Shown: positions 1,083 to 57,717 of the stretch, piece after piece
Numbering within the stretch: position 1 is the first letter of the stretch
Layout: every line of letters begins with the position of its first letter
Source of the DNA: an uncultured Rickettsiales bacterium
GTDB lineage: Bacteria > Pseudomonadota > Alphaproteobacteria > Rickettsiales > SXRF01
Assembly: GCA_964624555.1 (NCBI GenBank)
Contig: CAZUXB010000001.1
Coordinates: 1-61,423 of the forward strand
Direction of reading: 5' to 3'
DNA: 61,423 bases
The notes under the pieces: generated by a model
What the model saw: only the letters and a program-made list of their open reading frames with translations
What the model was told of the DNA's origin: nothing
Databases searched by the model: none
Program-made: the position numbers and the translations under genes

Positions 1083-1084
1083 AA

Positions 1085-2053: not shown

Positions 2054-2066
2054 GGCGCTATTCCTA

Positions 2067-3575: not shown

Positions 3576-3712
3576 TTTAAACTTTCCTTAACTGTTTATA
3601 CGCAAACGGACTTCTCCATCTTCTGTATAATAAACCAGAGGTGTTAAAATAGTGATAATATCCGCGTGTCAAAAACACACGATTTAAAGGGAGTTTAAGA
3701 GGTAAAAATATT

Positions 3713-4921
3713 CTATTTTTTCTTCTTCATGAACCCAAGAAGACCCTTATCTTTTGATTCCACCTCGAAAGAAAGACTAGGAATCAACTGTTTGGCCAAG
3801 GAATAAAGCGGTTGCATTGCCGCATGTTTTGCATTGGTAATAGAAGGGATATCATTGCCAATTACCATAAACACATCCGGCGTATAGACGATTTTTTCTA
3901 CTACCTTTGCCGTAATCCCTTTTTCAAAATCACCTACGCTCATTTCATTCTTAGGTGCTACCCCCGCCCTGTTCGCCACCACAAGAGGGGGTGACATTTT
4001 GAAGGTATCAACCAACAGGTCACTAATGCGCAACGTATCCCTGAGCGATTGCAGGGAAAGCTCGGCAACAAGTAGTATATTGTGGCATTTTTTCAGGCAT
4101 TCCCTGCCAAATTGGTCAAGATTACGGGGGATATCAAGCACCACAATATCGTATTTATTAGACAACTCACGGAGCAAAGCTTCTGCAGTAAGTTCATTAA
4201 CATGGATTTTTTCTTTAAGTTGTTCTTCTGCGCTTAGCACCCACAGATTCTCATGCGCTTTGTTCATTACCCGGTCAATAAAAAGCTGGTCGATCCTGTC
4301 CGGCTTCTCCAACGCATCACGCAACCCACGGGCTGGCTCTATATCAAGGTTAAGTGACAAAGTTCCTGCTTGGGGATCAATATCTACCAGGGCAATTTTT
4401 TTCCCGGCATGCTCCGCAAAAATCCCAGCCAGATTAAGGGCGATAGTCGACACCCCAACCCCACCACGGGCACCAACCACCCCTATTATTTTGGTAGGCT
4501 CTTTTACTTCTGCAGCGGCTGGCAAAGGCACATCAATCGACTTCAAATAGGCTTTTTCAAGCATATCTTTAGTCAGGGGACGGAGCAGGTAACTGAATAC
4601 GCCAATGTCAGTCAACCAGCAATAGAAGCTATACTCGTTTATTGTGCCGATAATAATGACCTTGGTATCAGGGTCGCAAACATTTGCCAGTGCATCAAGC
4701 AAAGAAGGAGCGGACTCGGCTGAAGGAACCTCTACCAGCAATAATACTGGTGAAGGATGGTTTTTAAAATAGTCGGTAGCGGTGCTGATATCACCCTGCA
4801 TAACACAGGATTCATCCCACTCATGCGCCCTGGCAAATCCTTTCAGGACCTCACGGTCAGCATTATCCTGGCAGAAAGAAAAGAATTTTGGTTTTTTTGC
4901 GGTATCAGCTGGTTGTGCCAT
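3713..4921 (-). CDS. cpaE: CpaE/TadZ ParA/MinD-like pilus localisation ATPase
   Basis: 402 aa. N-terminal receiver-like domain plus deviant Walker A GARGGVGVSTIALNLA. Position between cpaD and cpaF. Confidence 0.85.
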   Translation of the reverse strand: MAQPADTAKKPKFFSFCQDNADREVLKGFARAHEWDESCVMQGDISTATDYFKNHPSPVLLLVEVPSAESAPSLLDALANVCDPDTKVIIIGTINEYSFYCWLTDIGVFSYLLRPLTKDMLEKAYLKSIDVPLPAAAEVKEPTKIIGVVGARGGVGVSTIALNLAGIFAEHAGKKIALVDIDPQAGTLSLNLDIEPARGLRDALEKPDRIDQLFIDRVMNKAHENLWVLSAEEQLKEKIHVNELTAEALLRELSNKYDIVVLDIPRNLDQFGRECLKKCHNILLVAELSLQSLRDTLRISDLLVDTFKMSPPLVVANRAGVAPKNEMSVGDFEKGITAKVVEKIVYTPDVFMVIGNDIPSITNAKHAAMQPLYSLAKQLIPSLSFEVESKDKGLLGFMKKKK

Positions 4922-4941
4922 AATTTAAACATATCCTACTG

Positions 4942-5628
4942 TTATTGACCAGTGCTGGATGATGAGGAAGAAGATGATGCAGAGGAAGAGGACGACGAAG
5001 GCGTTGTCCCAGCTATAAAATCGGAAATAACTTTACCACTACGTTCAGTATTGCTCTGCCTTGAATCCCGCCCACGCACCAGATCCCTAGGGTCATCTAT
5101 CATCAGACCAAGATTAACTGCCGCCGAACAACCAAAATTGGCCGGCACCATATTACTGTAAGTGGTAACTGGTGATTTTTTCCAGTCTGGGCAGTCAGGG
5201 AAAACAACATCGACATAAGAAATATCAATTATAATCCTGCCACCTTCCAGATTCCTGTCAGACACCAATGAAACTGGCATATCCAGACCAGACTTGCGTA
5301 ACAACCCTTTTATAGAGGCTATACGCCGGACGTTGTATTTTATATCACTGGGAAAGTGTATAGAAATCCCATCCACCGCACGTTTATTGATGTTACTCAG
5401 GCTGTCTGAGAGCGAAGCACGGGCAGCATCGGATAAAACCTGCGACATACCGTCAAATTCTGCGCTAAGCAAAGCATGCCTGTTTTCCACTTTGGTCTCG
5501 ATAGGATTAGCAGCATAATATTCTTGCGGGTTATTTCCCTGTAAATCTAATTCCTGACAGGCAGAAAGAAGCGGTAAAACCGCAAATCCGATTAGCAAAA
5601 CCCTAGCATTAATTTTAGCAACCCGCAT
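4942..5628 (-). CDS. cpaD: CpaD pilus assembly lipoprotein
   Basis: 228 aa. Lipobox LLSAC. CpaD-like motif NFGCSAAVNLGLMIDDPRDLVRGR. Ser-rich C-terminal tail. Confidence 0.75.
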   Translation of the reverse strand: MRVAKINARVLLIGFAVLPLLSACQELDLQGNNPQEYYAANPIETKVENRHALLSAEFDGMSQVLSDAARASLSDSLSNINKRAVDGISIHFPSDIKYNVRRIASIKGLLRKSGLDMPVSLVSDRNLEGGRIIIDISYVDVVFPDCPDWKKSPVTTYSNMVPANFGCSAAVNLGLMIDDPRDLVRGRDSRQSNTERSGKVISDFIAGTTPSSSSSSASSSSSSSSTGQ

Positions 5629-5631
5629 ATA

Positions 5632-7146
5632 TCACTCCAGAATAAAACCGCTTTCACCGTTTAGCTTTGGTTCACCGCTACCAGCGCTTGGGGCCAGTTC
5701 CTCCAAGTTTTTTTCTTCTTTTTTATCATCTGTTTTCTCAAATATTTTATCATCCGCTTTATTATCGGCTTTATCAATCGACAGATTTTCCTTAGCTGGC
5801 ATATCCTGCTGCTGATATAAACTACCAGTCATCAAACGCTGCAAATCTGTGGCCGGTTTAAACCCATCTACAGGGGTTTGGATTTTGTGCGCATCCGAAA
5901 CCGGATGTACCACATACGGCGTAACCAGAATAACCAACTCTGTCTGGTTATTTTGGAATTTCTGGGAACGGAACAGGGCACCAAGAACCGGAAGATCGCC
6001 AACCCCTGGGAGTTTGCTGATATTATTGCTGGTATCATTACGCAAAAGCCCGGCCAATACAAAGGTCTGCCCGCTGCCCAACTCTACCGTTGCCTGCGCT
6101 TTGCGTGTATCCAGAATCGGATAGGTAAAACCGGAAATCTGGATCGGGTTGGAAAAATTCAGCGTGCTAACTTCCGGGTTTACCAATATGCTCATACGCT
6201 CATTAGACATAACAATCGGAGTAAAATTAAGGCTGACACCAAATGGCTCATACTGTACCGTGACCGTACCGTTCTGACCAGCAACAGGAATAGGATACTG
6301 GCCACCGGCAAGGAAACTGGCAGCTTTACCAGTCGAAGTAGTAAGGCTGGGCTCAGCAAGGACTGTAGCTAAACCTTGTGTTTCCAGGGCATCTATCAAA
6401 GAGGTGATACTATTTTTTCCACTGGTTATCTTGGTCATGATATTCGCATCAGCACTTACCGCACGGCTTACAAGTGCTGTAGGGTCAAGAGTACCGCTTA
6501 ACACCTGCGAAACTATCCCGCCCCCACTTACCGAAGATTGCAGGTTTATACCGAGGGTTTTTAGATCCGTGCGCGCCATTTCCACGATTTTCACCTGTAG
6601 CATCACCTGATCGCCGCCACCGGTGGTCAGCATATTCACCACCTTATCTTTATCCCCAACATAGGCCGCAACAACATTGCGTATATTCTCCGATTCCTGA
6701 ACTGAAGGTGCAGAACCATCCATAACCAGGCCGCCGTCAACTGACTTAAAATTGACCTTGGCATTAGGTGCCACGCGCCTAACTGTGCGCTCAAGGCTGC
6801 TTATATTATGGGTTACAGTGACAACAGACTGGAAAACCGGTTCATCTTTCTCATCAACCGCCGAGATAGAGGTCTCACCAATCTTCTTTCCATAAACAAA
6901 AATGGTCCGTGGAGAAACAACCTGTATATCTGCCGTGGTAGGATCAGCAACAACCACAGAGGCCGCAGCAGATGGGAATTTTACCATTTGCCCTTTGTTA
7001 ATTTCAACTGTGATAACAGAATCTCTAACCGCAAAATCTTTAAGCACAGAATCATTGGCAGGAAAATTCTCAGCCTCTGCGATAACAGGCATGGAAAAAT
7101 TTAAGCCTGCAACGATAAAACCAATCAAAAATATAATTTTTTTCAT
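5632..7146 (-). CDS. cpaC: CpaC/RcpA outer-membrane secretin
   Basis: 504 aa with a signal peptide. Secretin C-domain motif LPGVGDLPVLGALFRS...TELVILVTPYVV. Confidence 0.9.
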   Translation of the reverse strand: MKKIIFLIGFIVAGLNFSMPVIAEAENFPANDSVLKDFAVRDSVITVEINKGQMVKFPSAAASVVVADPTTADIQVVSPRTIFVYGKKIGETSISAVDEKDEPVFQSVVTVTHNISSLERTVRRVAPNAKVNFKSVDGGLVMDGSAPSVQESENIRNVVAAYVGDKDKVVNMLTTGGGDQVMLQVKIVEMARTDLKTLGINLQSSVSGGGIVSQVLSGTLDPTALVSRAVSADANIMTKITSGKNSITSLIDALETQGLATVLAEPSLTTSTGKAASFLAGGQYPIPVAGQNGTVTVQYEPFGVSLNFTPIVMSNERMSILVNPEVSTLNFSNPIQISGFTYPILDTRKAQATVELGSGQTFVLAGLLRNDTSNNISKLPGVGDLPVLGALFRSQKFQNNQTELVILVTPYVVHPVSDAHKIQTPVDGFKPATDLQRLMTGSLYQQQDMPAKENLSIDKADNKADDKIFEKTDDKKEEKNLEELAPSAGSGEPKLNGESGFILE

Positions 7147-8072
7147 TGTTTTTCCTGATAGAATTCTAGCATTTCGGTTTTATCGGCACGTATGACCTTT
7201 ACCCTGGCCATTGAACTTTCCTTTTGTTCAATCAGGCTACTGACATCGCCATCGATAGTATAGCCCTGAGCATCGGAAGGTACAGTATTTTCAGCATCCA
7301 TACCCTTATCGTCTTTAGCAACAACTGTAGGAACCCCATTACCAACAAGTGATACAGAAATTTTACCAAGTTCTGAGGCAACTGAAATTTTCTCTGCCTG
7401 GCTGGGGGTAACTTCAACAGTTATTGTTTTAGCAAGTATGGCCTTGTTGTCCGGGTTATCAAGCGACTGGTCCACCGCCAGCACCCGCACATTACTGGCA
7501 AATGTCTCCGTAGCTATAGAATCAGCCACACCGGAATCAGGATTTTTGGCATTTTTCACCCGGTAGGTAATAAGCAAATCCACCCGGTCGCCCGGCGAAA
7601 CGAAACCAGCGTTACCGGAAATAGGGTTAACGGAAATGGAAACCGCGCGCTTACCAGGCTCCAGCACGGCAGACATAAAACCGCCTTCGCCAGATTTCAT
7701 CAGCATTAAAGGAGTGATTGGCTCACCGGCGCGGATTGAGCGGCGAACCACAGCCCCGGCAAAATCCTCAATCCTGACGGAACCTTCATACTGGTAGTTA
7801 CCATTAGCAACAGGCGCTGTTGCACCAGCATCAGGGTTTTCAGTTTTTGCTTCAGTTGCATTTTCCTGTTTTGGTTCTGGCGCCCAATCAAGATCCTGCT
7901 GCACATCAATAAACGCACCGCTAACCAAATTACGTTTTGCCACCAATATGTGTTTTTCAGCTATTTCTACTTTTGGTGCCTCCGGCTCATGCGTAAAATA
8001 CTCACGCAACGACATAATGGTAAAACCAACTACAACCAATACAATCAGTAAAACAATTGCGCGACTAGACAT
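7143..8072 (-). CDS. cpaB: CpaB/RcpC Flp pilus assembly protein
   Basis: 309 aa. N-terminal TM anchor and SAF-like domain. First gene of the tad run, overlapping cpaC by 4 nt. Confidence 0.8.
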   Translation of the reverse strand: MSSRAIVLLIVLVVVGFTIMSLREYFTHEPEAPKVEIAEKHILVAKRNLVSGAFIDVQQDLDWAPEPKQENATEAKTENPDAGATAPVANGNYQYEGSVRIEDFAGAVVRRSIRAGEPITPLMLMKSGEGGFMSAVLEPGKRAVSISVNPISGNAGFVSPGDRVDLLITYRVKNAKNPDSGVADSIATETFASNVRVLAVDQSLDNPDNKAILAKTITVEVTPSQAEKISVASELGKISVSLVGNGVPTVVAKDDKGMDAENTVPSDAQGYTIDGDVSSLIEQKESSMARVKVIRADKTEMLEFYQEKQ

Positions 8073-8218
8073 TCACAACCACCTAATTTTCGGTTTAAGA
8101 CCGGTTCATATTACTTGCAATAAGCACACTCAACAACCGCAGATTCTATTCAAAAACAACTTAATAAAGTATTAAACTATGTTGTAAAAAAGCACCAGAT
8201 ACCAAATAAGCGACCAGC

Positions 8219-9238
8219 TCACCTTAATTGCGTAACCCTTAACAATTCCCTGCTACTGGCCGGTACCGCCGGAAGGTCAGAAGTTTTACATTCCAACTCG
8301 GCAGTTATCAGGAGTTTCAGGGCTTTTATTATACTTTCTATATTCCAGCTGCCAGCGTGCCTTATAAGTATCGGCTGCTGTTTAAAAAACACTGGAGGAC
8401 GCAAACCTGATACAACCATCTCGGCACTCTGCCCACTTTCCTGCATCTGTGAACGAATAGCATACAGGCGGTTAAAATAGCGCTGTAATGAACGCAAATA
8501 CATAATCGGCTGTGTCCCTTCGCGTAAATGCTGTGTGATGCTCTCCTCTAAGACAGCAATGTTGCGGTCAGCCACAGCATTTACTATATCATCAAGATTT
8601 GCATCTTGGTTGTAACCTACCAGAGCTTGCGCATCCTGCAAACTTATTTTTTTGCTGTCGACAGAATAGAGAAGTATTTTTTCCAATTCCTGGTAAGTGA
8701 CATAACGATCATTACCCAACTGCCCACTCAGGTAATCGACAACTTCACGGTCATATGCTATTCCCGCCGCATCAAATTTCTGGCGGATTATGGCCTGTAT
8801 ATCACGCATCTCATCACGGTAACAGGCGAGCGCGGCACAATCCGTTTTTTTTTCAAAAAACGCCCGCAGCGATGAGCGGCTGGAAAGCTCATCAGCAACC
8901 ACCAGCAGGAAATTATCCTTATGAAAACAACTGGCAGCGGATTCAATTATTTTAGTTAGCTTATCACCGGCATCACGAATAATGATAATTCGCTTCGGGC
9001 ACATCATGCTCACCGCCGATAATTCATCGGCAAGGCACGGCGGATCAGCCAGTATATCGGCCTCCGACAACTCCATTTTGGCAAAAGAATCTCCGGCATC
9101 CTTACCTAAAACAGCTTTTATTATTTTTTCGCAGCGTTCACGCACCAGTCCATTATCTACACCATATACAAGCACAGCGTGGTGCTCACGCTGCGGCGCT
9201 GCAAGGAATGACTCAACAGACTTTGGGGCAAGTTTCAT
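8219..9238 (-). CDS. holA: DNA polymerase III delta subunit
   Basis: 339 aa. Sits in the conserved leuS-lptE-holA order. N-terminal clamp-loader delta-like region (VLVYGVDNGLVRE). Confidence 0.75.
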   Translation of the reverse strand: MKLAPKSVESFLAAPQREHHAVLVYGVDNGLVRERCEKIIKAVLGKDAGDSFAKMELSEADILADPPCLADELSAVSMMCPKRIIIIRDAGDKLTKIIESAASCFHKDNFLLVVADELSSRSSLRAFFEKKTDCAALACYRDEMRDIQAIIRQKFDAAGIAYDREVVDYLSGQLGNDRYVTYQELEKILLYSVDSKKISLQDAQALVGYNQDANLDDIVNAVADRNIAVLEESITQHLREGTQPIMYLRSLQRYFNRLYAIRSQMQESGQSAEMVVSGLRPPVFFKQQPILIRHAGSWNIESIIKALKLLITAELECKTSDLPAVPASSRELLRVTQLR

Positions 9239-9833
9239 CTACTACCGGCGGAGTGGATAATGATGGGGTTGGAGGATATAGTTTTTCAGAGAAAGCTAGC
9301 AAACGCTGGCGATAAATTTCTACAATTTCATTGATACCGTGGCTACGTGCATCCTGTTCAGAAACATATGTAGAAAAATATTTGTTATTTGGATTGTTAT
9401 AGCTGGTCACATTACTGATAGCTCCTCTATCTACTACCTTATTATCCGATAAACGGATAAGCCTGTAATTTGAAGCTATTGACAGGTTATAACGTGTCGC
9501 TGTTCCGTCACGCGCAACCCCTACCCCGCTTATTGACTGGGCCAATTGCACTTCCAGTTTATAGGTCGGGGCATCAGATGCTCCCACAACGTCTTCCAGC
9601 TTATTTGTAAACTGCCTGACCAGAAACTTACCTGCACTATCATCTATCGTGATATTATTCTCTGATGATGCCCTGCCAGCAGCATTGGCCGCAATTTGTA
9701 TTCCCGCCCGCAAAACAGACTGCCCGGCAGTGGTTGATTCCTTGCTATACACCGCATGAAAACCGCAGGAGCTAAGGAGCAGGCAGACAACAGGCAATAG
9801 GCAACAGACCTTATATTTATGCAATAACAACAT
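9213..9833 (-). CDS. lptE: LPS-assembly lipoprotein LptE
   Basis: 206 aa. Lipobox LLSSCGF. Lies between leuS and holA with overlaps on both sides, which is the conserved synteny. Confidence 0.7.
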   Translation of the reverse strand: MLLLHKYKVCCLLPVVCLLLSSCGFHAVYSKESTTAGQSVLRAGIQIAANAAGRASSENNITIDDSAGKFLVRQFTNKLEDVVGASDAPTYKLEVQLAQSISGVGVARDGTATRYNLSIASNYRLIRLSDNKVVDRGAISNVTSYNNPNNKYFSTYVSEQDARSHGINEIVEIYRQRLLAFSEKLYPPTPSLSTPPVVDETCPKVC

Positions 9834-12369
9834 TCACAATCCTGTTCGGTACAACGATGACCTTGTTTATGGTTTTGCCTTTGAGCAGTTCGCTGATGGC
9901 AGGAACAGCAAGCGCCTCTTCCTCCGCCAGTTTCTTATCTGCATCTTTAGGCAATTCGACAGTCGCCCGTAATTTTCCATTTATTTGTATAGCAATCGTG
10001 ATGCTATCGTCAACGAGCCATTTGCTATCAGCTACCGGCCACGGCCTGTCAGCTATCATATCCTTGTTACCAAGCCGCTGCCATAATTCTTCGGAAATAT
10101 GTGGCATAAAAGGATTTATAAGATGGATAGCGGCGATGATAGCTTCAAGGCGCACCTCTTTCGTAGCGGCAGTAAGCGGAGTATCTTCCACCATGTTGGT
10201 AAGTTCGCGGATACGGGCGATGGCCTTGTTGAAATGGAATTTTTGCAAGTCATCGGTAACGGCAGCGATGGTTTTGTTTGTTGCTTTACGTAAGTTATCA
10301 GTCGTCGGTTGTCGGTTGTCGGTTTTTTCTTCTGACAACTGACCACTGACCACTGACGACTGAACTAAGCGCCACAGACGATTGATATACCGCCACGCCC
10401 CTTCAATACCAGCATCGGTCCATTCCAGATCACGCTCTGGCGGGCTGTCGGAAAGCATGAACAGGCGCGCAGCATCCACACCATAGGTTTCGATGATGTG
10501 GCGCGGGTCGATGGTATTTTTCTTCGACTTGCTCATCTTCTCAATGCGGCCAACAACCACTTCCTTACCGGTAGAAATTTCTACCAGCTTGCCCATATCA
10601 TTTTTAGTAATCTCGTCCGGCGTTACCCATTTGCCTTCGGCATTTTTATAAGTCTCATGCGAGATCATGCCCTGTGTTTCAAGGCGTTTGAACGGTTCTT
10701 CGAGCGCAAGCAAACCACATTTTTTCAGGGCACGGGTGAAGAAGCGCGAATAAAGCAGATGCAACACCGCATGCTCAATGCCGCCGATATAGCAATCCAC
10801 GCCATCTTTGAGCCAGTAATCAAGAACGGTTTTCTCCAGTGGCTCTGCACTCGGCAATGTCGCATAGCGCAGAAAATACCATGATGATTCGAAGAAGGTA
10901 TCGAACGTGTCGGTTTCGCGGCGCGCGGCTTTACTACATTTCGGGCAGCTTACATTTTTCCAGGTCGGGTGATGCTCCAGAGGATTTCCCGGCTTGTCGA
11001 ATTTCACATCTTTCGGCAGCTCGACCGGCAAATCTTTTTCCGGTACCGGAACGGTTCCGCAAGTTTCGCAGTGGATAATAGGTATCGGACAACCCCAGTA
11101 GCGCTGGCGGGAAATACCCCAGTCGCGCAGGCGGTAATTTATTTTTTCCTTGCCAGCGCCAATTTTTTCCAGTTCGACAATGGCTTTTTTCTTTGCAGCG
11201 TCAACCGGCAAACCATTTAGGAAATGCGAGTTAATGGCAACGCCATCGCCGGTATAAGGCAGCGGCTCATCGGTGTTGCCTGCACTCACTACCGGAAGTA
11301 TCGGCAGGTGATATTTGCTGGCAAAATCAAAGTCGCGCTGGTCATGCGCCGGGCAGCCGAATATCGCGCCGGTACCGTAATCCATCAACACGAAATTAGC
11401 AATGAACAGCGGCACTTCGCGCTCTTCAAATGGATGCTTTATTTTGAGCCCGGTATCGAAACCTTTTTTCTCGGCCTTTTCGATGGCTTCCTCGCTGGTG
11501 CCGAGTTGGTTGCATTCAGCAATGAAAGTTGCTAGTTGCTGGTTGCCAGTTGCTAGTGAAGTAGATATCGGATGGTTCGCGGCAATGGCGCAGAATGACA
11601 TGCCGAAGATGGTATCTGGTCGCGTGGTATAGATATCCAGATATTCTTCTTTGCCGGAAATTTTAAGGCGCAAACTCGCACCACTGGATTTCCCTATCCA
11701 GCGATCCTGCATAATGCGCACTTTATCCGGCCATTCTTTGAGCGTGTTGAGTCCGGCGAGCAAGTCGTCAGCGAAATCAGAAATGCGCAGGAACCACTGC
11801 GAAAGCTTGCGGCGCTCGACCAGTGCGCCACTGCGCCAGCCCCTGCCCTCTATCACCTGCTCATTGGCGAGCACGGTTTGGTCGACCGGGTCCCAGTTCA
11901 CTTCCGCTTCTTTGCGATAGGCCAAACCATTCTGCAGAAATTTCAGGAAGAATAATTGTTCGTGCTTGTAATATTCGGGCAGGCAGGTGGCCAGTTCGCG
12001 CGACCAGTCATAAGAAAGTCCGATAAGCTTTAATTGCTCACGCATGGTATCGATGTTGGCCAGTGTCCAGGTTTCCGGATGGGAATTATTCTGGATAGCC
12101 GCATTTTCAGCAGGAAGGCCAAAAGCATCCCAGCCCATCGGATGCAACACATTATAGCCCTGTGCGCGCTTGCTACGGGCTACCACATCACCCAGCGTAT
12201 AGTTGCGCACATGCCCCATATGGATGTTGCCCGATGGATAGGGAAACATCTCCAGCACATAGTATTTAGGCTTTTTGCTTTCCGAGGTTGCGGCAAAGGT
12301 TTTGTTTTTCTGCCAATAATCCTGCCATTTGGCTTCGGTTTCGCGGAAATTATAGCGGGTTGGTTCCAT
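9817..12369 (-). CDS. leuS: Leucyl-tRNA synthetase
   Basis: 850 aa. HIGH-type motif GNIHMGHVRNY, KMSKSKKN, and an editing-domain insertion. Confidence 0.97.
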   Translation of the reverse strand: MEPTRYNFRETEAKWQDYWQKNKTFAATSESKKPKYYVLEMFPYPSGNIHMGHVRNYTLGDVVARSKRAQGYNVLHPMGWDAFGLPAENAAIQNNSHPETWTLANIDTMREQLKLIGLSYDWSRELATCLPEYYKHEQLFFLKFLQNGLAYRKEAEVNWDPVDQTVLANEQVIEGRGWRSGALVERRKLSQWFLRISDFADDLLAGLNTLKEWPDKVRIMQDRWIGKSSGASLRLKISGKEEYLDIYTTRPDTIFGMSFCAIAANHPISTSLATGNQQLATFIAECNQLGTSEEAIEKAEKKGFDTGLKIKHPFEEREVPLFIANFVLMDYGTGAIFGCPAHDQRDFDFASKYHLPILPVVSAGNTDEPLPYTGDGVAINSHFLNGLPVDAAKKKAIVELEKIGAGKEKINYRLRDWGISRQRYWGCPIPIIHCETCGTVPVPEKDLPVELPKDVKFDKPGNPLEHHPTWKNVSCPKCSKAARRETDTFDTFFESSWYFLRYATLPSAEPLEKTVLDYWLKDGVDCYIGGIEHAVLHLLYSRFFTRALKKCGLLALEEPFKRLETQGMISHETYKNAEGKWVTPDEITKNDMGKLVEISTGKEVVVGRIEKMSKSKKNTIDPRHIIETYGVDAARLFMLSDSPPERDLEWTDAGIEGAWRYINRLWRLVQSSVVSGQLSEEKTDNRQPTTDNLRKATNKTIAAVTDDLQKFHFNKAIARIRELTNMVEDTPLTAATKEVRLEAIIAAIHLINPFMPHISEELWQRLGNKDMIADRPWPVADSKWLVDDSITIAIQINGKLRATVELPKDADKKLAEEEALAVPAISELLKGKTINKVIVVPNRIVNVVIA
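10298..10363. repeat. Short-period hairpin element, in frame inside leuS
   Basis: Left arm TCAGTCGTC(GGTTGTC)x2GGTT, 8-nt loop, right arm TGACAACTGACCACTGACCACTGACGACTGA. The outer 9 bp pair perfectly and the rest pairs with G:T wobbles. Translated as SSVVSGQLSEEKTDNRQPTTDN. Confidence 0.85.
11528..11558. repeat. Four tandem degenerate heptamers (GTTGCNN) inside leuS
   Basis: GTTGCTA GTTGCTG GTTGCCA GTTGCTA GTG, translated on the minus strand as LATGNQQLAT. Resembles the arm of the 27185-27250 hairpin. No inverted partner seen nearby. Confidence 0.7.
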
Positions 12370-20619: not shown

Positions 20620-21654
20620 ATGAGTTACAAAGTTGCCGTTGTCGGCGCTACCGGAAATGTCGGCCGCGCCATGCTTTCCATCCTCGCTGATCGCCGCTTC
20701 CCTGCGCGCGAAGTGGTTGCCCTTGCGTCTAAACGCTCGCTTGGCAAGGAAGTAAGCTACGGAGAAACCGAAATTTTGAAAGTCCAGGCGCTGGAAGATT
20801 ACGATTTCTCGGACACCGACATCGCCCTGTTCTCGCCCGGCTCTGCTGTATCAAAAATATATGCCCCTGTCGCCGCAGCGGCGGGTTGCGTGGTAATCGA
20901 CAATACCTCGTATTTCCGCATGGACCCGACCATCGCGCTGGTGATACCGGAAGTAAATGCTGACGCGCTTAAAGATTTCCGCAAAACCAATATCATTGCA
21001 AATCCTAACTGCTCGACCATGCAGATGCTGGTAGCACTGAAACCACTGCATGATGCAGCGACAATCAAGCGCATCGTGGTTGCGACCTATCAATCGGTGA
21101 GCGGCGCAGGCAAACCGGCGATGGATGAGCTGTTCGACCAGACCAAAGCCCTGTTCGTGAATGACAAGAAAGAGGCTTCGGTGTTCACCAAACCTATTGC
21201 GTTCAACGTGATCCCGCATATCGATTCATTCATTGATAACGGCTCGACCAAAGAAGAGCAGAAAATGGTGAATGAAACCAAAAAAATTCTCGACCCGAAT
21301 ATCGAGGTGATCGCCACCTGCGTGCGCGTGCCGGTGTTTGTCGGCCACTCGGAAGCGGTTTATGTCGAGTTTGAAAAAGCCATCAGCGTGGATGAAGCAC
21401 GCGGCCTGCTGGAAAATGCGCCTGGCGTGGTGGTGTATGACGAGCTGCGCGATGGCGGTTATTCCACGCCGCTGGAATGTGCCGGGGAAGACGCGGTGTT
21501 CGTGTCACGCCTACGTGCTGACCCGACGGTGAAACATGGTCTGGCTATGTGGATCGTGTCCGACAATTTGCGCAAAGGTGCGGCGCTGAATACCATTCAG
21601 ATCGCCGAAGAACTCATCGAGAATTATGGGCTGGCGCCGAAGAAGCTGAATTAG
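20620..21654 (+). CDS. asd: Aspartate-semialdehyde dehydrogenase
   Basis: 344 aa. Motifs VAVVGATGNVGR, IANPNCSTMQ, SVSGAG. Confidence 0.95.
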   Translation: MSYKVAVVGATGNVGRAMLSILADRRFPAREVVALASKRSLGKEVSYGETEILKVQALEDYDFSDTDIALFSPGSAVSKIYAPVAAAAGCVVIDNTSYFRMDPTIALVIPEVNADALKDFRKTNIIANPNCSTMQMLVALKPLHDAATIKRIVVATYQSVSGAGKPAMDELFDQTKALFVNDKKEASVFTKPIAFNVIPHIDSFIDNGSTKEEQKMVNETKKILDPNIEVIATCVRVPVFVGHSEAVYVEFEKAISVDEARGLLENAPGVVVYDELRDGGYSTPLECAGEDAVFVSRLRADPTVKHGLAMWIVSDNLRKGAALNTIQIAEELIENYGLAPKKLN

Positions 21655-21655
21655 T

Positions 21656-21745
21656 CACCCCTCCCTAACCCTCCCCACTACGTGGAGAGGGAACTCTTCT
21701 TAATCCTCTCTCCCGCTTGCGGGGGAGAGTTAGAGAGGGGGATTA
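21656..21745. repeat. CCCTCCC/GGGAGGG-type composite palindromic element
   Basis: CCCCTCCCTAACCCTCCCC-ACTACGT-GGAGAGGGAA ... CTCTCTCCCGCTTGCGGGGGAGAGTTAGAGAGGGGGATTA. Same family as 45950-46084 and the queG internal segment. Confidence 0.8.
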
Positions 21746-21799
21746 TCTATCTATTTCTCCAAACACTACGTCCATGGTGCCGATGATGGCAAGCACACA
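21743..21799 (-). pseudogene. Ghost copy of the nuoD 3' end (last ~17 codons plus stop)
   Basis: Minus-strand reading gives ..[16 protein letters not shown], matching the live nuoD end [16 protein letters not shown] (22957-23004). An in-frame stop lies just upstream, so it is not part of a gene. Confidence 0.85.
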
Positions 21800-21842
21800 T
21801 ATTTACTGATTTTTCATATTTATCCGCCATAATGAGCACATT

Positions 21843-22880
21843 ATGATAAAAATGAGGAACATCCAATTGGATAAACTTGCCCCCCCGTCAACTTTAGGTT
21901 GCAGTGCCAAGGGCGTCATTGCGAGGCGTAGCCGAAGCAATCCATTACCAGAATGCGGCAGCACCTGGATTGCTTCACCTGCGGTTCGCAATGACGGAAG
22001 CAATGGTTTTACACTCATAGAGTTAAGTATAGTGCTGGTTATCATCGGCCTGATAGTGGGTGGCGTACTGGTTGGCAGGGATCTCATAGCCAGCTCATCT
22101 CTTAGAGCACAAATTGGACAGCTTGAAAAATACACAACTGCCATAATGGCTTTTCAATCTAAGTATAATGGCTTACCCGGAGATATCAAAAATGCTACTG
22201 ATTTTGGCTTTAAAAATAGAGGGACAAGCCGTGGTCAGGGTGACGGAAATGGTATTTTGGAAGGCGATAGCACAGCAGGTTTTGGCAACACTGGCTATGC
22301 ACAATTTATAGGCCTGACATCTGAAAATGTACTTGTATGGACTGATCTTTCAGATGCTAAGTTAATAGATGGAGCTTTCTCTAACCCGACAAATGTTTAC
22401 ACCACAATGCCTGGAACCTATCTCCCGACGGCAAAAATAGGCAACAATAATTTTATATACACTTTCAGTGGTGGTTATAATTCATCAGCACCCAATGGAT
22501 TAAATTACTTCGGGCTCGGCAGAATTAACTATATGGATAGTGGTGTTGATTTTACCGCAACGGCAGGTTTAAGTGTATATCAAGCTTCATATCTTGATGA
22601 AAAAATAGATGATGGGCTTCCACAATCAGGAAAAACCATGGCTTTTCATGTTGTACTGGGTTCACCTAAATGGGCTAATGGCAGCAAAACAATCGTAGGC
22701 CCGATGACATGGCAAAGCACATCCGGTGCAAATAATGCCGCAGATAATGGCCCCACAACTACCGCTACCCCATCCTCAACTACAACATGCTATGATAATA
22801 ATAATGTGGTGGCTAACCAACAATATTCAAAAACCGCTGGTCTTAATTTGATAAACTGCGCATTATCATTTAGATTCTGA
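21843..22880 (+). CDS. Prepilin-type N-terminal cleavage/methylation domain protein (pseudopilin or type IV pilin-like)
   Basis: Motif G-FTLIELSIVLVIIGLIVGGVL (Gly-1, Phe+1, Glu+5) at residues 54-76. Only the far-upstream ATG is in frame, giving an unusually long leader. The start is uncertain. Confidence 0.7.
   Translation: MIKMRNIQLDKLAPPSTLGCSAKGVIARRSRSNPLPECGSTWIASPAVRNDGSNGFTLIELSIVLVIIGLIVGGVLVGRDLIASSSLRAQIGQLEKYTTAIMAFQSKYNGLPGDIKNATDFGFKNRGTSRGQGDGNGILEGDSTAGFGNTGYAQFIGLTSENVLVWTDLSDAKLIDGAFSNPTNVYTTMPGTYLPTAKIGNNNFIYTFSGGYNSSAPNGLNYFGLGRINYMDSGVDFTATAGLSVYQASYLDEKIDDGLPQSGKTMAFHVVLGSPKWANGSKTIVGPMTWQSTSGANNAADNGPTTTATPSSTTTCYDNNNVVANQQYSKTAGLNLINCALSFRF
21914..21996. repeat. Palindromic element (CGTCATTGCGA...GAAGCAATCC / GGATTGCTTC...TCGCAATGACG) within the prepilin leader region
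   Basis: 30-nt arms match at the outer 11 and inner 10 positions around a 23-nt centre. Read through in frame as VIARRSRSNPLPECGSTWIASPAVRNDG. Confidence 0.8.
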
Positions 22881-22928
22881 TAACAATTCTGATGATGGCT
22901 CTACTTACATAGGCGAAACGATAAAGTT

Positions 22929-22953
22929 CCTGTTCAGCCTTACGGCTCACAGG
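22929..22953. terminator. Possible hairpin terminator between the convergent prepilin gene and nuoD
   Basis: CCTGTTCAGCC-TTAC-GGCTCACAGG followed by ATTTTA. The T-tract is weak. Confidence 0.3.
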
Positions 22954-22956
22954 ATT

Positions 22957-24141
22957 TTACCTATCAATCTCCCCAAACACCACGTCCATGGTGCCGATGA
23001 TGGCGACCACATCGGCAAGCATGTGGCCTTTGCTCATCATTTCCAGTGCCTGTAAGTGCGCGAAGCCGGGAGCTTTTATCTTGCAGCGGTAGGGTTTGTT
23101 GGTGCCGTCAGCCACTAAGTACACACCGAACTCGCCTTTCGGCGCTTCCACGGCAGTGTAGGTTTCGCCGACCGGCACGTGGTAGCCTTCGCTGTAGAGT
23201 TTGAAATGGTGGATGAGCGCTTCCATCGATTGCTTCATGAGGGCGCGTTTCGGCGGCGCGATCTTCGGGTCGCCGGTAACCACCGGCCCTTCCGGCATCT
23301 GCTCCACGCACTGGCGGATTATTTTCATGGACTGGCGCATTTCTTCCATGCGCACGAGGTAGCGGTCATAACAGTCGCCATTCTTGCCGATGGGTATGTC
23401 GAAATCTAGCTTATCATAGCAATCATAAGGCTGGGCCTTGCGCAAATCCCACGCTATGCCGGAACCACGCAGCATTGCGCCGGAAAAACCCCAATCCTGC
23501 GCCTGTTTGGCGGTAACCACGCCGATATCCACGAGGCGCTGTTTGAAGATGCGGTTCTCGGACAGGAGGTCGTCCACGTCATCGACATATTTCTTAAAAC
23601 CATCGACAAATTTGAGCACGTCTTCATTGAGGCCGCGCGGTATATCCTGATGCACCCCACCCGGGCGGATGTACGCCGAGTGGAAGCGCGCGCCCGATGC
23701 GCGCTCATAAAATTCGATGATCTTTTCGCGCTCTTCAAAGAGCCATAATAGCGGTGTCATTGCCCCAATATCAAGAGCTTGCGTGGTGATGTTAAGAATA
23801 TGGTTTAAGAGCCGGGTGAGCTCGCAGAACATCACGCGGATGTATTGGGCACGCAGAGGCACCTCGCAACCAAGCAGCTTTTCCACCGCCAGCGAGTAGC
23901 AATGTTCCTGCGCCATGGGGGACACGTAATCAAGCCGGTCGAAATAGGGCAGCGCCTGCAAATAGGTCTTATGTTCTATTAACTTTTCGGTGCCGCGATG
24001 GAGCAGGCCGACATGCGGGTCGGCGCGTTCGATCACCTCCCCGTCCATCTCAAGCACAAGGCGAAGTACGCCATGCGCCGCAGGGTGCTGGGGGCCGAAG
24101 TTTAATGTTGTGGTGGTTTTTTGGTTTGCTTCTTGGGTCAT
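22957..24141 (-). CDS. nuoD: NADH-quinone oxidoreductase subunit D
   Basis: 394 aa. Motifs [15 protein letters not shown], and the C-terminal end ...DVVFGEIDR. Confidence 0.97.
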
Positions 24142-24143
24142 AG

Positions 24144-24551
24144 TTAAACTGGTGTTAGTGTGGGTGTGAGTGTTGGTGTATAAGTATCTAATTTCTTCTC
24201 AAGGGCATTAAATAATCCGCCCAGCAGCCTTCCAATTTCATTACTTACGTCCATAATAGATAAATACGTCGCTTCGTCAATATAACCAAGTCGTTTTGCT
24301 ATAATAATTTGCGTCTCGACTTCAGCAAGTGAGCCTTGAGATATGCCTACAAAGCGCATGTACTCTTTAGTGGTGTGCCTTTTACTACCCTCTGCTATAT
24401 TGGAAGGGACAGATATAACTGCTCTACATAGCTGGTCTATCAGCCTGTATTGCTCTTTTTTAGGAAAGTTATCAGTAATTCTATAAATCATTTCTACCAA
24501 AACCATCGACTGCTGCCAAACTTTCAAATCCTGATAACTTTTTACCATCAC
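24144..24551 (-). CDS. Four-helix-bundle protein, 23S rRNA intervening-sequence protein family (Avd-like)
   Basis: Motifs [49 protein letters not shown]. The likely ATG start is at 24548. The C-terminal [11 protein letters not shown] tail is encoded by the repeat arm. Confidence 0.85.
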
Positions 24552-24579
24552 TCACACCCCCACCAGCACTCACACTACC
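24151..24579. repeat. Inverted-repeat-bounded cassette carrying a four-helix-bundle gene (cassette 1)
   Basis: Left arm 24151-24180 is G/T-only, built of about 6-nt units. Right arm 24549-24579 is CACTCA CACCCC CACCAG CACTCA CACTAC C. Positions 24165-24179 pair with 24561-24575 at 14/15. Confidence 0.8.
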
Positions 24580-25124
24580 TAAAGAAACCTATGCATTATA
24601 TAAACATCGACCAGACCCTCGCTGATATGGTCGAAGCCTTTAGGGATGGTACCTACGATCTTGAAACCAATGGATTTCCACAGATCGACCGCGACCTTGT
24701 TGATGCTCACCACAAAGTTAAACTGCATGGCGAGGTAGCCTTTGGAGCGGGCGAAATCAAGCGCGGCATGGCCGAGCGCGCGGGCGATGCCCATGCGCCG
24801 GCAATCAGGATGCACAAGGAAGGAGGCATTGGCGACATGGTGACCACGGCCAGTGCGGTTCGGGCGAACAGCAGCTATCCCTGCCACTTTCCCGTCAATA
24901 TCCGCAACCAGACAATGGGTTCCAGGCGCCGTCATCAGGTAGGCCATCGAACGGTCCGGAGTCATTTCCTCCAGCGTGTAGGAATAGGTTTTGCCTTCGA
25001 TAAGGACATTGCGGAAAATATCGTATATCTCCTCGAAATCCTCCAGACGCGCCGGACGTATGTTGTAAGATGGGTGCGGTTTGGAATTGGGATTCTGGAT
25101 AAAGAATTTGGCAAGCTTCATCAT
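24579..25124 (-). CDS. GNAT-family N-acetyltransferase
   Basis: 181 aa. Acetyl-CoA site motif RRMGIARALGHAALDFARSKGY. Block NFVVSINKVAVDLWKSIGFKIVGTIP resembles phosphinothricin/MSX-type GNATs. Confidence 0.8.
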   Translation of the reverse strand: MMKLAKFFIQNPNSKPHPSYNIRPARLEDFEEIYDIFRNVLIEGKTYSYTLEEMTPDRSMAYLMTAPGTHCLVADIDGKVAGIAAVRPNRTGRGHHVANASFLVHPDCRRMGIARALGHAALDFARSKGYLAMQFNFVVSINKVAVDLWKSIGFKIVGTIPKGFDHISEGLVDVYIMHRFL

Positions 25125-25697
25125 TTAACTGGCCTTCTCATCACCGGGCAGATGGGTCATGCCTTCCCACGGGCTCATATAATCAAAACTGCGGTAAGCC
25201 TGGTTGAGCTTTACCGGCTCATAGACCACGCGCTTCTGCTCCACGTCATAGCGCATTTCGACGTAACCGGTAAGTGGGAAATCCTTGCGCTGCGGATGGC
25301 CTTCAAAACCGTAATCGGTAAGGATACGGCGCAAATCGGGATGCTCGGAAAATAAGATGCCGTACATGTCCCACGCCTCGCGCTCATACCAACCAGCCGA
25401 AGAAAATATACCAACCACCGAAGGTATTGGGGTTTTCTCATCGGTGCAAACACGTACCCGCACACGCATATTCTGTCTTAAACTAAGAAGTAAATAAACT
25501 GCTTCAAACCTTTGTTCTCGCTCAGGAAAATCAACTCCGGCAATGTCGACAAGCTGGGTGAACTGAGTATCCTGCGAATCGCGCAAAGCAGTAAGCAAAG
25601 GCAACAGTTTGTCACCTTTCACGTTTATCACCTGCTCGTCCCGGATGGTCTCGACAGTAGCGCCAAAACCTTCCAGCCATTTATCTTCAAATATCAT
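25125..25697 (-). CDS. nuoC: NADH-quinone oxidoreductase subunit C
   Basis: 190 aa. Motifs [40 protein letters not shown]. Confidence 0.93.
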
Positions 25698-25703
25698 ATA
25701 ACC

Positions 25704-26294
25704 TCACATCTTTTTTAATTGCCACCGCCCGTTCTCGCTTCCGGGAGTGATGAATTCATACAAACCGCAATTGGCGATCTTTTCCTTGTCTGTGCCTTTA
25801 GCAGAGGCCAGTTCCAGCATCCGGCGGATATTGCCGCCGTGGGTGATGAACAGCGGAACCCCATCCCTAATTTCAAGGTGGTTTGCAATGGCCAGTACCG
25901 TGCGCATACGCAAACTTTCCTTCGATTCCTCACCTTCAATAACCCCACCCGAATTTAGTATCCTGCTCCTTTCAACATCTGCCATTCCTTCGGCCGCACC
26001 ATAAGCCCGCTCGTTGATACCGCTTTCTACAAAATGCGGCAAATCACGCAGCGAACTACAGTCGCATATCAGCTTCGCCGTCTCGATGGTTCTGCGCATT
26101 TCGCTGGTAACCACGTAGGAGATGGCTGGCATTATACCAGCCAGCACGGGCTGCATCAACTGCGCCTGCCTTCTGCCCTCAGTGGTAAGCATGGTATCGC
26201 TCCCTTTACCGCTGACCACCTTGTTTTTATTATCCTCAGTTTCCGCGTGGCGCAGCATGTAAAAATTACGCCCGTGAGGAAATGTAAGGCTCAT
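25704..26294 (-). CDS. Histidine phosphatase superfamily protein (phosphoglycerate-mutase-like)
   Basis: 196 aa. Catalytic RHAET motif near the N-terminus and ITHGG near the C-terminus. Its ATG overlaps the nuoB TGA (ATGA). Confidence 0.8.
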
Positions 26295-27260: not shown

Positions 27261-28313
27261 ATGTCTGATGCAATAAAAAAATTGATAATTTCCAAGGCAA
27301 AAGCGGTTGGTTTTGACACGGTTGGCTTCTGCGCCGCCGAGTTACCTCTGGAAACCTCGGAAAACCTGCATAATTTCCTGAACCAGGGCTACCACGGCGA
27401 TATGGGTTGGCTCAAAGACCGCGCCGAGCTGCGCGCAAACCCTGGGAGCCTGTGGCCGGAAGCGAAGTCGGTGATCATGCTCGGGCATAATTACGCGCCG
27501 CCGCAAAACCCGCTGGAAAAACTGGCGGAAAAAACTATCGGCAATATATCCTGCTACGCCCAGAATGAAGATTATCACGATGTCATCAAGAAAAAACTCA
27601 AGGAACTGGCGGGTTTCATAGCGACAGAATATAACTGCGAGGTGAAGGTATTTGTCGATACCGCGCCGGTCATGGAAAAACCTCTGGCCGCCCTGTCAGG
27701 CATAGGCTGGCAAGGCAAACACACCTGCATGGTCAGCCGCGAATTCGGTGCGTGGTTGTTCCTTGGCGCGATATTTACGACACTCCCCCTCCCTAGCCCT
27801 CCCCCGCAAGCGGGAGAGGGAATTGATCATTGTGGTTCCTGCACAAAATGCTTGGACATCTGCCCAACGGGTGCTTTTACAGCGGAACGCCAGATTGATG
27901 CGCGCAGGTGCATATCCTATCTCACCATTGAACATAAAGGACAGATAGATGTGGAATACCGCAAAGCCATTGGCAACCGTATTTACGGCTGCGACGACTG
28001 CCTCGCCATCTGCCCGTGGAATAAATTTGCGCAAACCGCGCAGGAAGCAGCCTATCACGCACGTAGCGAACTTAAGTCCCCTGCCCTGCACAATTTAGTC
28101 ACACTTGACGATGCCGCTTTCCGCACCATGTTCCGCAAGTCGCCGGTAAAGCGCATCGGTCGCGATCGCTTCATCCGCAACGTACTGATAGCGGTTGGTA
28201 ACAGTGAAGATATATCGCTAATTCCAATAATTATCCCTCTACTTAACGATAATTCAGCGCTGGTTTCAGAAATGGCTGATTGGGCACTAAAACAGCTTGA
28301 TGGCCACGCTTAA
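27261..28313 (+). CDS. queG: Epoxyqueuosine reductase
   Basis: 350 aa. Fe-S motifs CGSCTKCLDICPTGA and CDDCLAICPWNKF. HEAT-like C-terminus. Confidence 0.9.
   Translation: MSDAIKKLIISKAKAVGFDTVGFCAAELPLETSENLHNFLNQGYHGDMGWLKDRAELRANPGSLWPEAKSVIMLGHNYAPPQNPLEKLAEKTIGNISCYAQNEDYHDVIKKKLKELAGFIATEYNCEVKVFVDTAPVMEKPLAALSGIGWQGKHTCMVSREFGAWLFLGAIFTTLPLPSPPPQAGEGIDHCGSCTKCLDICPTGAFTAERQIDARRCISYLTIEHKGQIDVEYRKAIGNRIYGCDDCLAICPWNKFAQTAQEAAYHARSELKSPALHNLVTLDDAAFRTMFRKSPVKRIGRDRFIRNVLIAVGNSEDISLIPIIIPLLNDNSALVSEMADWALKQLDGHA
27785..27822. repeat. CCCTCCC/GGGAGGG-type repeat half-element, in frame inside queG
   Basis: CCCTCCCTAGCCCTCCCC-CGCAAGC-GGGAGAGGGAA closely matches CCCTCCCTAACCCTCCCC-ACTACGT-GGAGAGGGAA at 21658-21695. 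Translated as PLPSPPPQAGEG. Confidence 0.8.
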
Positions 28314-30809: not shown

Positions 30810-31230
30810 GACGTAAATCGTAAGACGTATTAAGAATCTTTTTCCGTTAAAGAATTTCTTAAGCGATAAAGCATACGGCTGATATCTTCTGCCAAGTTAA
30901 GCATCTCCTGATAAATATTTTCAGCCATATAATTGCGTTGATATGCTAAAATGATCTGCGTCTCCAGCTCTGCCAGAGAGCCGTGCGCAATTTCACAGAA
31001 ACGCCTATAATCGGCTTTACTGCCACGAATACTTCCTTCAGCTATATTTGATGCAATAGACACAGCCGCCCCTTGCATCTGATTAGCCAGTGCATAAACT
31101 TCATTTTTGGGGAACTGTGACGTAGCATCGTAAATTTTATTAGCAAGCAGAATGGCTTTATTCCAGACATCGAGTTGCCGATAATTTTTAAAAGCCATAT
31201 TTTAGCCGCCTTACGTCTTACGATTTACGT
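30806..31230. repeat. Inverted-repeat-bounded cassette carrying a four-helix-bundle gene (cassette 2)
   Basis: Left arm is GTAAGAC GTAAATC GTAAGAC GTA (30806-30829). ACGTAAATCGTAAGACGTA is the perfect 19-nt reverse complement of TACGTCTTACGATTTACGT in the right arm (31210-31230). Confidence 0.9.
30830..31198 (-). CDS. Four-helix-bundle protein, 23S rRNA intervening-sequence protein family (Avd-like)
   Basis: 122 aa. Motifs YRQLDVWNKA, FPKNEVYALANQMQGAAVSIASNIAEGS, GSLAELETQIILA. I estimate roughly one third identity to the 24144-24551 protein. Confidence 0.85.
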   Translation of the reverse strand: MAFKNYRQLDVWNKAILLANKIYDATSQFPKNEVYALANQMQGAAVSIASNIAEGSIRGSKADYRRFCEIAHGSLAELETQIILAYQRNYMAENIYQEMLNLAEDISRMLYRLRNSLTEKDS

Positions 31231-45949: not shown

Positions 45950-46084
45950 AGTTCCCTCTCCCTCTGGGAGAAGGTTAGGATGAGGGCTGCTATCGTTAGT
46001 AAAGAAAAAGCCCCCATCCCCCTACGCCAAGTGGCTTCGTGGGACGCAGCCCCGGCCATCTCCCAAAGGGAGAGGGAGAATTAT
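45950..46084. repeat. CCCTCTCCC/GGGAGAGGG-type composite palindromic element (~135 bp)
   Basis: Left end TTCCCTCTCCCTCTGGGAGAAGGTTAGGATGAGGG, right end TCTCCCAAAGGGAGAGGGAGAATTATCTAT. Fills the purL-start/bcp-stop gap. Shares the TTATCTAT terminus with 21656-21745. Confidence 0.8.
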
Positions 46085-57695: not shown

Positions 57696-57717
57696 ATAGC
57701 TATAGCGTCAAATATAT

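Follow-up and report, generated by a model that had tools for sequence, protein, structure and literature searches.

A second, synonymously diverged nuoD 3' end flanks an orphan prepilin-type gene at a synteny breakpoint of an uncultured Rickettsiales bacterium

This work concerns a short interval within 61,423 nucleotides of DNA (contig CAZUXB010000001.1 of assembly GCA_964624555.1, referred to as a whole as the window) from an uncultured Rickettsiales-like wastewater bacterium, in which the last codons of nuoD are found twice on the minus strand, on either side of a single prepilin-type gene that is called the cargo hereafter. Read from the asd side, the interval comprises a palindromic repeat element, a truncated copy of the nuoD end (the ghost tail), an AT-rich segment, a second palindromic element that is translated as part of the cargo leader, the cargo itself, a spacer, and an intact nuoD which carries the live tail (Table 1).

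Table 1. Features of the asd-nuoD interval, with positions counted from the first letter of the window.
Feature	Position	Strand	Description
asd (aspartate-semialdehyde dehydrogenase)	20620..21654	+	Pfam Semialdhyde_dh and Semialdhyde_dhC; last gene of the cobS-asd block
Palindromic multi-copy REP/MITE-like element, 84 bp	21658..21741	.	Spans the entire gap from the stop of asd to that of the ghost
Ghost nuoD tail	21743..21797	-	15 codons and stop (21743-21790), then 7 nt of weaker similarity
AT-rich unique segment, 82 nt	21798..21879	+	Source of the start codon (ATG, 21843) of the extended open reading frame and of its first 12 codons
Cargo open reading frame, prepilin-type (345 aa)	21843..22880	+	Pfam N_methyl, E = 1.8e-6
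Second multi-copy palindromic element (core 21914-21997)	21880..22004	+	Translated in frame within the prepilin leader
Spacer between the convergent cargo and nuoD, 76 nt	22881..22956	.	REP-like hairpin at 22928-22955 (fold)
Live nuoD tail	22957..23011	-	Distal part 22957-22981 holds the five differences; proximal part 22982-23004 identical to the ghost
nuoD, intact (394 aa)	22957..24141	-	Pfam Complex1_49kDa, E = 5.9e-128
Candidate crossover segment ATGGACGT	22982..22989	-	Hypothetical; compatible with the switches in the window and in the X2 contig

Translation of the minus strand at 21743-21790 confirmed what a first-pass annotation of this DNA had reported, namely that it encodes the last 15 residues of NuoD followed by a stop codon (GCC ATC ATC GGC ACC ATG GAC GTA GTG TTT GGA GAA ATA GAT AGA TAA), matching the end of the gene at 22957-23004. 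The ghost and live tails are identical at 43/48 nucleotides and at 15/15 encoded residues, and the five differences (GTA/GTG, GGA/GGG, GAA/GAG, ATA/ATT and AGA/AGG, the ghost being given first) are all in third positions and all synonymous, as had been read from the sequence before. They are all located in the stop-proximal 22 nt, with an A in the ghost at each, and the first 23 nt of both tails (GCCATCATCGGCACCATGGACGT) are identical. A repeat search lengthened the match to 55 nt, 87% of them identical (21743-21797 and 22957-23011), and its outermost edge holds a replacement codon, CTT in the ghost versus GTC in the live copy (L/V); past this edge similarity is lost, while on the 3' side it ends exactly at the stop codon. 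The two copies are 1214 nt apart and constitute the top internal repeat of the entire window, so that their resemblance is not due to chance. No start codon precedes the ghost, and the in-frame TAA already noticed upstream of it lies four codons away (MKNQ*ICVLAIIG..., the asterisk being the stop). The nuoD open reading frame itself is intact; its product is 95% identical to NuoD of two relatives (L001 and L002), and its C-terminus is invariant among relatives.

Independent evidence on this arrangement was obtained from public metagenome runs, using Logan contigs built from a k=31 graph, with assembled contigs used at low depth. In a wastewater run (X1, sample S1), where the depth of the organism is about 8x, contigs reproduce 21712-21942 (repeat element, ghost and cargo leader) and 21968-23955 (cargo and nuoD) with 0 differences. 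Because these independent contigs match, the ghost, the ghost-cargo join and the cargo-nuoD join are real DNA, and not a join introduced in the metagenome-assembled genome. An activated-sludge run (X2) yielded contigs covering 21880-21943 with 1 difference, and 21914-21997 and 21968-22131 identically. One further X2 contig of 242 nt is identical to the window over 22792-22989, a span that takes in the end of the cargo, the spacer, the nuoD stop and the distal live tail. Beyond this span, the contig differs at 22990, 22993, 22996, 22999 and 23002, with two further differences up to 23033; its proximal tail thus reads GCG ATA ATA GGA ACG, versus GCC ATC ATC GGC ACC in the window. Cargo k-mers were present at 0.29-0.33 in X2 and in another run, X3, where those of this nuoD were at 0.04 or absent, and the asd and nuoD pieces of these two runs are 85-98% identical to the window. 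On the strength of the X2 contig and of these k-mer shares, the cargo and the live distal tail appear to be common to different nuoD backgrounds. The live distal tail may therefore have come along with the cargo, which supports the proposal of the first-pass annotation that the cargo was imported with a nuoD 3' end attached, a process which it had preferred to a local duplication.

The left limit of the shared block was also located by X2. Left of 21880, this run carries AGGAGAATAACA-GTG CAA TGC GAT A, where a Shine-Dalgarno sequence precedes a GTG start codon and translation begins with MQCD..., which resembles the MQCAPST... of the closest cargo homologue (P0002, 49% identical), and this alternative flank was not found in any locus of the relatives examined. 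Since X2 differs there, the 82-nt segment at 21798-21879 and its ATG are outside the shared block. The earlier suggestion that everything between the two nuoD ends looked inserted has to be amended on its left side, where the shared block begins at 21880 and not at the ghost. As to the tails themselves, the window ghost has a G-type proximal and an A-type distal part, and the X2 live tail an A-type proximal and a G-type distal part, so that these two sequences have the look of reciprocal products of recombination. Both switches can be accommodated only in the 8-nt segment ATGGACGT, and a crossover may have taken place there, a position that we put forward as a hypothesis because it draws on one contig of 2.8x depth from a k=31 graph.

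The genomic context was compared in 14 distinct relatives (L001, L003-L012, L076, L164/L165 and L166/L167), whose NuoD proteins are 77-95% identical to that of the window. In 14/14 of them nuoD is followed by a small secreted protein X, nuoE and nuoF, and by nuoG wherever the contig extends that far. Protein X (about 170-220 aa, without a Pfam match and often overlapping the nuoD stop; for example at 11146-11778 in L001, 11150-11692 in L003 and 11173-11817 in L076) is missing from the window. Neither asd, nor a prepilin gene, nor a second nuoD tail was found near nuoD in the relatives examined. The cobS-asd synteny is kept in L084, with an Asd 90% identical to that of the window, and the close Asd relatives retain cobS-asd, followed downstream by other genes and never by nuoD. 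As the neighbours of both nuoD and asd differ in relatives, the 1.3 kb between asd and nuoD is a lineage-specific synteny breakpoint. The nuo operon is indeed cut after nuoD, the right-hand block being nuoA-B-(His phosphatase)-C-(GNAT)-(intervening sequence protein, IVP)-D, and a NuoE search for the other side of the breakpoint found matches only in relatives with an intact operon. The idea that asd, the repeat element and the end of nuoD form the older junction accordingly found no comparative support, this junction being absent from relatives, though it is possible within the lineage itself.

Relatives were less informative about the age and the polarity of the event. Their nuoD genes are only 75-80% identical to ours in DNA sequence, with none close (>90%) in the collections, and for this reason the timing of the operon break with respect to the insertion could not be read from them. 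The ghost and live tails share 27-42/48 identities with nuoD of relatives, against 43/48 with each other, and since they are closer mutually than to any relative, both must be alleles of the same narrow lineage. The five variable sites are scattered among relatives, and alignment, which had been advised as a way of recognizing the native copy, did not settle the matter, as identity to the live and to the ghost copy differs by at most 4 nt of 48. Apart from the fragmentary X2 strain, no relative carries a prepilin gene here, whether accompanied by a ghost or not.

The explanation that we favour, with moderate confidence, takes the ghost for the 3' end of the resident nuoD, displaced by a cargo segment which brought its own replacement for that end. 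According to this scheme, a closely related lineage would have contributed about 1.1-1.2 kb of DNA with the orphan pilin gene and the last nuoD codons, and this segment would have recombined into the nuoD terminus through a crossover inside the 23-nt identical stretch. The working nuoD would then end in imported codons and an imported stop, followed by the imported spacer and cargo, and the old end would have been displaced 1.2 kb downstream, beside the palindromic repeat element and asd. The NuoD protein would have stayed as it was, the 15 residues encoded by the imported tail being identical to the old ones, and the similarity would end exactly at the stop codon because only the coding part had to be supplied. 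Homologous or homology-facilitated recombination appears to be the most likely process, given that the insert contains no recombinase; it may have consisted of a Campbell-type single crossover, or of one homologous crossover and one illegitimate end-join, and the DNA may have been taken up from a sister strain. The direction of the exchange (live distal tail imported, ghost resident), like the crossover position and the enzymology, is what we infer from the sequences compared.

Several observations weigh against this explanation. The 1.2-kb insert encodes neither an integrase nor another recombinase, but a single open reading frame, whose sole Pfam match is N_methyl. The ghost is adjoined by the repeat element and asd, and not by X and nuoE as in relatives, so that at least one further rearrangement is needed. 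The proximal part of the live tail is G-type in the window and A-type in X2, which calls for an extra short gene conversion or for independent events. The codons of the ghost are themselves odd for a piece of the resident gene, since its distal eight codons are A-ending (1/8 ends in G or C), while nuoD as a whole has a GC content at third codon positions (GC3) of 0.69 (binomial probability about 0.002), and this usage rather resembles that of the cargo; the five codon pairs discriminate poorly between core and cargo usage, with the exception of GTG/GTA. The X2 evidence comes from a single 242-nt contig of low depth, which could be chimeric if another strain shares at least 30 nt of the distal tail. 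Neither an insert-free allele nor a joint skipping the insert was present in the contigs of runs X1-X4 or X7, and in X7, which contains nuoD words and no cargo, only tails of other organisms were found. Among 80 nuoD loci of relatives there is no second nuoD tail and no cargo, so that the ghost is unique with respect to these loci, and two solitary genes of the same prepilin family in a related organism (L083, see below) are not accompanied by a flanking duplication or ghost.

Other explanations were weighed against the same data. A chimeric join in the metagenome-assembled contig is barely credible: the link from asd to the ghost does cross the 84-bp multi-copy repeat, and is supported in the X1 graph only by a 72-nt unitig of depth 16, but single error-free contigs at the depth of the organism contain the join of ghost and cargo and that of cargo and nuoD. 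The reads are longer than the repeat, and a misjoin could alter the asd side beyond the repeat, not the ghost. A local 55-bp duplication, target-site-like or produced by slippage during cargo insertion and followed by divergence in place, would account for a direct repeat flanking the insert as a target duplication does, and the five ghost variants, all to A, are what AT-biased decay may produce. We nevertheless consider it highly improbable. In simulations, the share of trials in which five random substitutions all proved synonymous was 0.03% with uniform and 0.24% with AT-biased substitution (p = 0.0003-0.0024 under neutral decay), so that a local duplicate decayed in place can be rejected and both tails must have diverged within working nuoD genes, which bears out the earlier reading of the synonymous pattern as divergence under coding selection. 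Changes confined to the live copy are also improbable by simple arithmetic, since the unconstrained 48-nt ghost offers about three times as many free sites. Such a duplication also demands zero change in the first 23 nt and zero indels, its 55 bp are far above the usual size of a target duplication, and it leaves the X2 mosaic unexplained.

Synonymous-only divergence also fits a ghost that is all that remains of another, once functional nuoD, two copies having stood in series until a deletion left 55 nt, with the pilin gene merely lying between them. This second copy might have arisen through the rearrangement that split the nuo operon, or a sister strain might have been the source of an additional nuoABCD block that was taken up, and the location of the ghost at a cobS-asd/nuoABCD breakpoint seen in no relative, like the abundance of palindromic repeats able to drive rearrangement, speaks in favour of this origin. 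It seems unlikely to us, however, as the deletion would have had to end by chance 17 codons before the stop, as no other nuoD fragment exists within the window, and as the presence in X2 of the cargo and the distal live tail, without the nuoD body, is left unexplained by it. An element moving by site-specific recombination is a further and quite doubtful alternative, with an identical outcome and another enzymology, in which a recombinase-less pilin cassette of 1.1-1.2 kb, flanked by left and right attachment sites (attL/attR), would behave as a non-autonomous, cis-mobilisable mini integrative element and pass between strains by means of a tyrosine or serine recombinase encoded elsewhere. The 8-bp recombination core would be ATGGACGT, in the conserved M-D-V codons of nuoD, and the full 17-codon tail of the cassette would be the attP arm. 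This proposal is consistent with the ghost and the X2 live tail as reciprocal products of a crossover between an all-A and an all-G tail, with the 8 nt at 22982-22989 as the sole interval fitting both switches, with a near-identical cargo across backgrounds, and with the tandem family members found in a relative (L081) on an element that bears two integrases, MobA and TraG. Against it, no recombinase is encoded in or adjoining the insert, the core is deduced from two sequences of which one is a low-depth contig, neither ghost nor cargo occurs at nuoD among the 80 loci of relatives, neither an empty site nor a circular junction was seen in the contigs of the runs, and the X2 and window copies differ left of 21880 and thus have no common left end.

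Whichever way it came to lie beside nuoD, the cargo models as a large type-IV-pilin-like protein. Its cleavage/methylation motif, G/FTLIELS at 22005-22028 (the slash marking the cleavage site), is part of a prepilin motif (G/FTLIELSIVLVIIGLIVGG) recognized by Pfam PF07963 with 27.7 bits for a cut-off of 21.2, and it is followed by a mature part of about 290 aa ending at 22880. F2, T3, L4 and E6 are invariant across 49 homologues, as are C262 and C285. The AlphaFold 2 model (predicted local distance difference test, pLDDT, 86) predicts a helix over residues 4-54 and a beta-rich head, and its best structural matches in the PDB are the type IVb pilins 9iuf and CofA (probability 0.96, E = 0.01), with template modelling (TM) scores of 0.36-0.47 that make the likeness weak; a sequence search of the PDB returned marginal matches to pilin N-termini only. 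Homologues are numerous (n = 5282, about 45-50% identity) and there are often several per contig, while a plasmid collection contained only prepilin proteins about 30% identical to the cargo. The GC3 of the cargo is 0.34 and that of the other window genes spans 0.34-0.69; because it falls inside the range of the genome itself, its low GC is not diagnostic, and composition, which had been recommended as a check, does not mark the cargo as foreign. Tad/Flp pilus genes (CpaF-type ATPase, CpaC secretin, CpaB, two TadE and TadG) were observed at 54-8072 and 55681-58290; they are the only type of pilus genes within the window, and belong to a different pilin class from the cargo.

The cargo leader departs from that of its family, with 54 residues versus 3-17 (for example MQKGFTL), and its length results from the translation of the palindrome. 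The palindrome-encoded peptide VIARRSRSNPLPECGSTWIASPAVRNDGS directly precedes G/F, no in-frame start codon is present between the palindrome and G/F, and the homologue P0002 has the same palindrome-encoded peptide at the same position before G/FTL. In-frame palindromic insertions are known from Rickettsia, and the palindrome of the cargo leader resembles these.

In L083, a 389-kb contig of a related organism, solitary members of the prepilin family are inserted between fabG and acpP and between yceG and folD (6416-7234 and 10001-10924), inside conserved housekeeping clusters. Because members sit singly between housekeeping genes in this way, being an orphan is the normal state of the family. 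In L081, tandem members occupy 6290-9774; three are called genes (7123-9774), on a contig that also has two integrases, MobA and a TraG-like gene, and an unannotated open reading frame at 6290-7129 has the repeat of the family too, which makes a fourth copy. This context points to a mobile source for the prepilin family.

Both palindromes of the interval are multi-copy. The element between asd and the ghost folds at -46.9 kcal/mol (z = -4.5), and its depth in X1 is 100-250 versus about 8 in its flanks; it is short, palindromic, multi-copy, intergenic and set exactly between two stop codons, in line with repetitive extragenic palindromic (REP) or miniature inverted-repeat transposable element (MITE) sequences. 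The element in the cargo leader is an inverted repeat with 31-nt arms (fold -52.3 kcal/mol, z = -4.8) that reaches a depth of about 170 in X1, and an Rfam search of the two gave no match, merely sub-threshold noise from miRNA models. The hairpin of the cargo-nuoD spacer matches at 93% a palindromic repeat cluster in a relative (L006, 3134-3161). Promoter and terminator scans remained at chance level, and for the 82-nt segment there was no blast match elsewhere and no consensus promoter. The first-pass annotation had described the 8-mer TTATCTAT as the terminus of the repeat element, fused to the ghost stop and found again after the bcp stop. The 8-mer does occur at 21743-21750 and at 46081-46088, but it belongs to the flank and not to the element, since the further copies of the 84-bp element in X1 diverge right after 21741 (as they do before 21658), and at bcp, whose product ends in KGL with a TAG at 46085-46087, it overlaps that stop in a different register. 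At both places it abuts the right end of a G/C-rich palindromic element, the two elements being distinct, and ...TTAG is found left of each; this sharing may reflect a target preference of the elements, or coincidence. Elsewhere, a 35-nt copy of the right arm of the ghost-adjacent element was observed at 27784-27818 inside queG (27261-28313, plus strand), between the DUF1730 and 4Fe-4S domains, and it seems that here, too, a palindrome was inserted in frame. The genome is rich in small palindromes of this kind and in dispersed orphan pilin genes.

The nuo operon contains other interlopers, both in the window and in relatives. The spacer between nuoD and nuoE is a recurrent insertion site in relatives, which speaks for the favoured explanation of the ghost, and three of them show this: a protein with a NucS C-domain is present at 3339-4070 in L004, two small open reading frames at 11495-12044 in L008, and one at 2135-2434 in L011. 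In L007, a tandem repeat of CAGTCAGATAA (three units, about 3397-3440) lies directly 3' of the nuoD stop and runs into an N. Two low-GC genes for a "23S rRNA intervening sequence protein" (PF05635, a four-helix bundle) are found in the window, at 24144-24551 and 30830-31198, wedged tightly among housekeeping genes, one of them directly before the nuoD start codon. Genes of this type occupy other nuo operon slots in relatives (L002, L004 and L008, with two in L004), and these varied slots suggest that they move. The interval 24579-26294 of the window holds a histidine phosphatase gene between nuoB and nuoC and a GNAT acetyltransferase gene between nuoC and nuoD, both conserved in the clade; such interlopers are seen in L001, L003, L005, L006, L164 and L166, and L166/L167 add a peroxiredoxin between nuoA and nuoB.

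From a broader point of view, ghost tails with only synonymous differences are direct footprints of foreign DNA that entered an essential gene without breaking it. The known cases are prophages or islands of many kilobases with their own integrase, whereas a single 1-kb gene for a surface protein, without a recombinase, is concerned here. If the unit is truly mobile, it would offer one route by which a family of more than 5000 orphan pilins, with several per genome, enters housekeeping operons; and if it moves as a site-specific cassette, it would be a minimal mobile unit that mimics a gene tail, smaller than any described island that targets a protein gene. If it is only a recombination scar, it provides a clean marker of strain-to-strain exchange at the breakpoint that splits the nuo operon. 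Either way, the locus makes a tidy teaching example and does not introduce a new principle.

The closest precedent is the e14 prophage of Escherichia coli. On one side icd reaches into the prophage with its end, and on the other lies the C-terminal pseudogene icdC (PMC13626634). Most of the differences between the ends of icd and icdC are synonymous (PMC13626634; Hill et al. 1989 as cited there). The likeness to e14 and phage 21 at icd lies in an insert placed in the last codons of an essential metabolic gene, with a substitute 3' end that preserves the protein; in both settings the insert stands between direct repeats of the target 3' end, the target open reading frame is intact and its ends differ mostly synonymously. 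The two diverge in scale and in equipment, as e14 is a 15-kb prophage with an integrase and an icd repeat of about 50 codons, whereas the insert described here has 1.2 kb, one gene, 15-17 repeated codons and no integrase or excisionase of its own, and the displaced end is not followed by its native downstream neighbours.

Homology-facilitated illegitimate recombination offers a second comparison. De Vries and Wackernagel reportedly described in 2002 that a homologous anchor in a conserved gene, combined with a non-homologous join, admits foreign DNA, a route which is said to be known from laboratory transformation assays and can leave a truncated recipient copy beside the insert. In the present case, the non-homologous left junction would be at 21797/21798 or at 21879/21880. 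Pavlovic and colleagues are likewise said to have described, in Streptococcus thermophilus in 2004, cis-mobilisable elements (CIMEs), which are att-flanked islands without an integrase, mobilised by a resident integrative and conjugative element (ICE) sharing their att sites. The locus resembles a CIME in the direct repeat of a gene 3' end that flanks a short cargo without recombination genes, and differs from it in that neither a mobilising ICE nor a shared att site was found. The palindromes may be likened, in form, to the Rickettsia palindromic elements (RPE), being short, multi-copy and located in frame (prepilin leader, queG) or after stop codons; as accessories of the locus, they leave the ghost unexplained. 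Taken as a whole, the feature is real and non-random, and is best understood as a gene tail displaced by recombinational insertion where synteny is broken, an event of a known kind in a small variant that lacks a recombinase.

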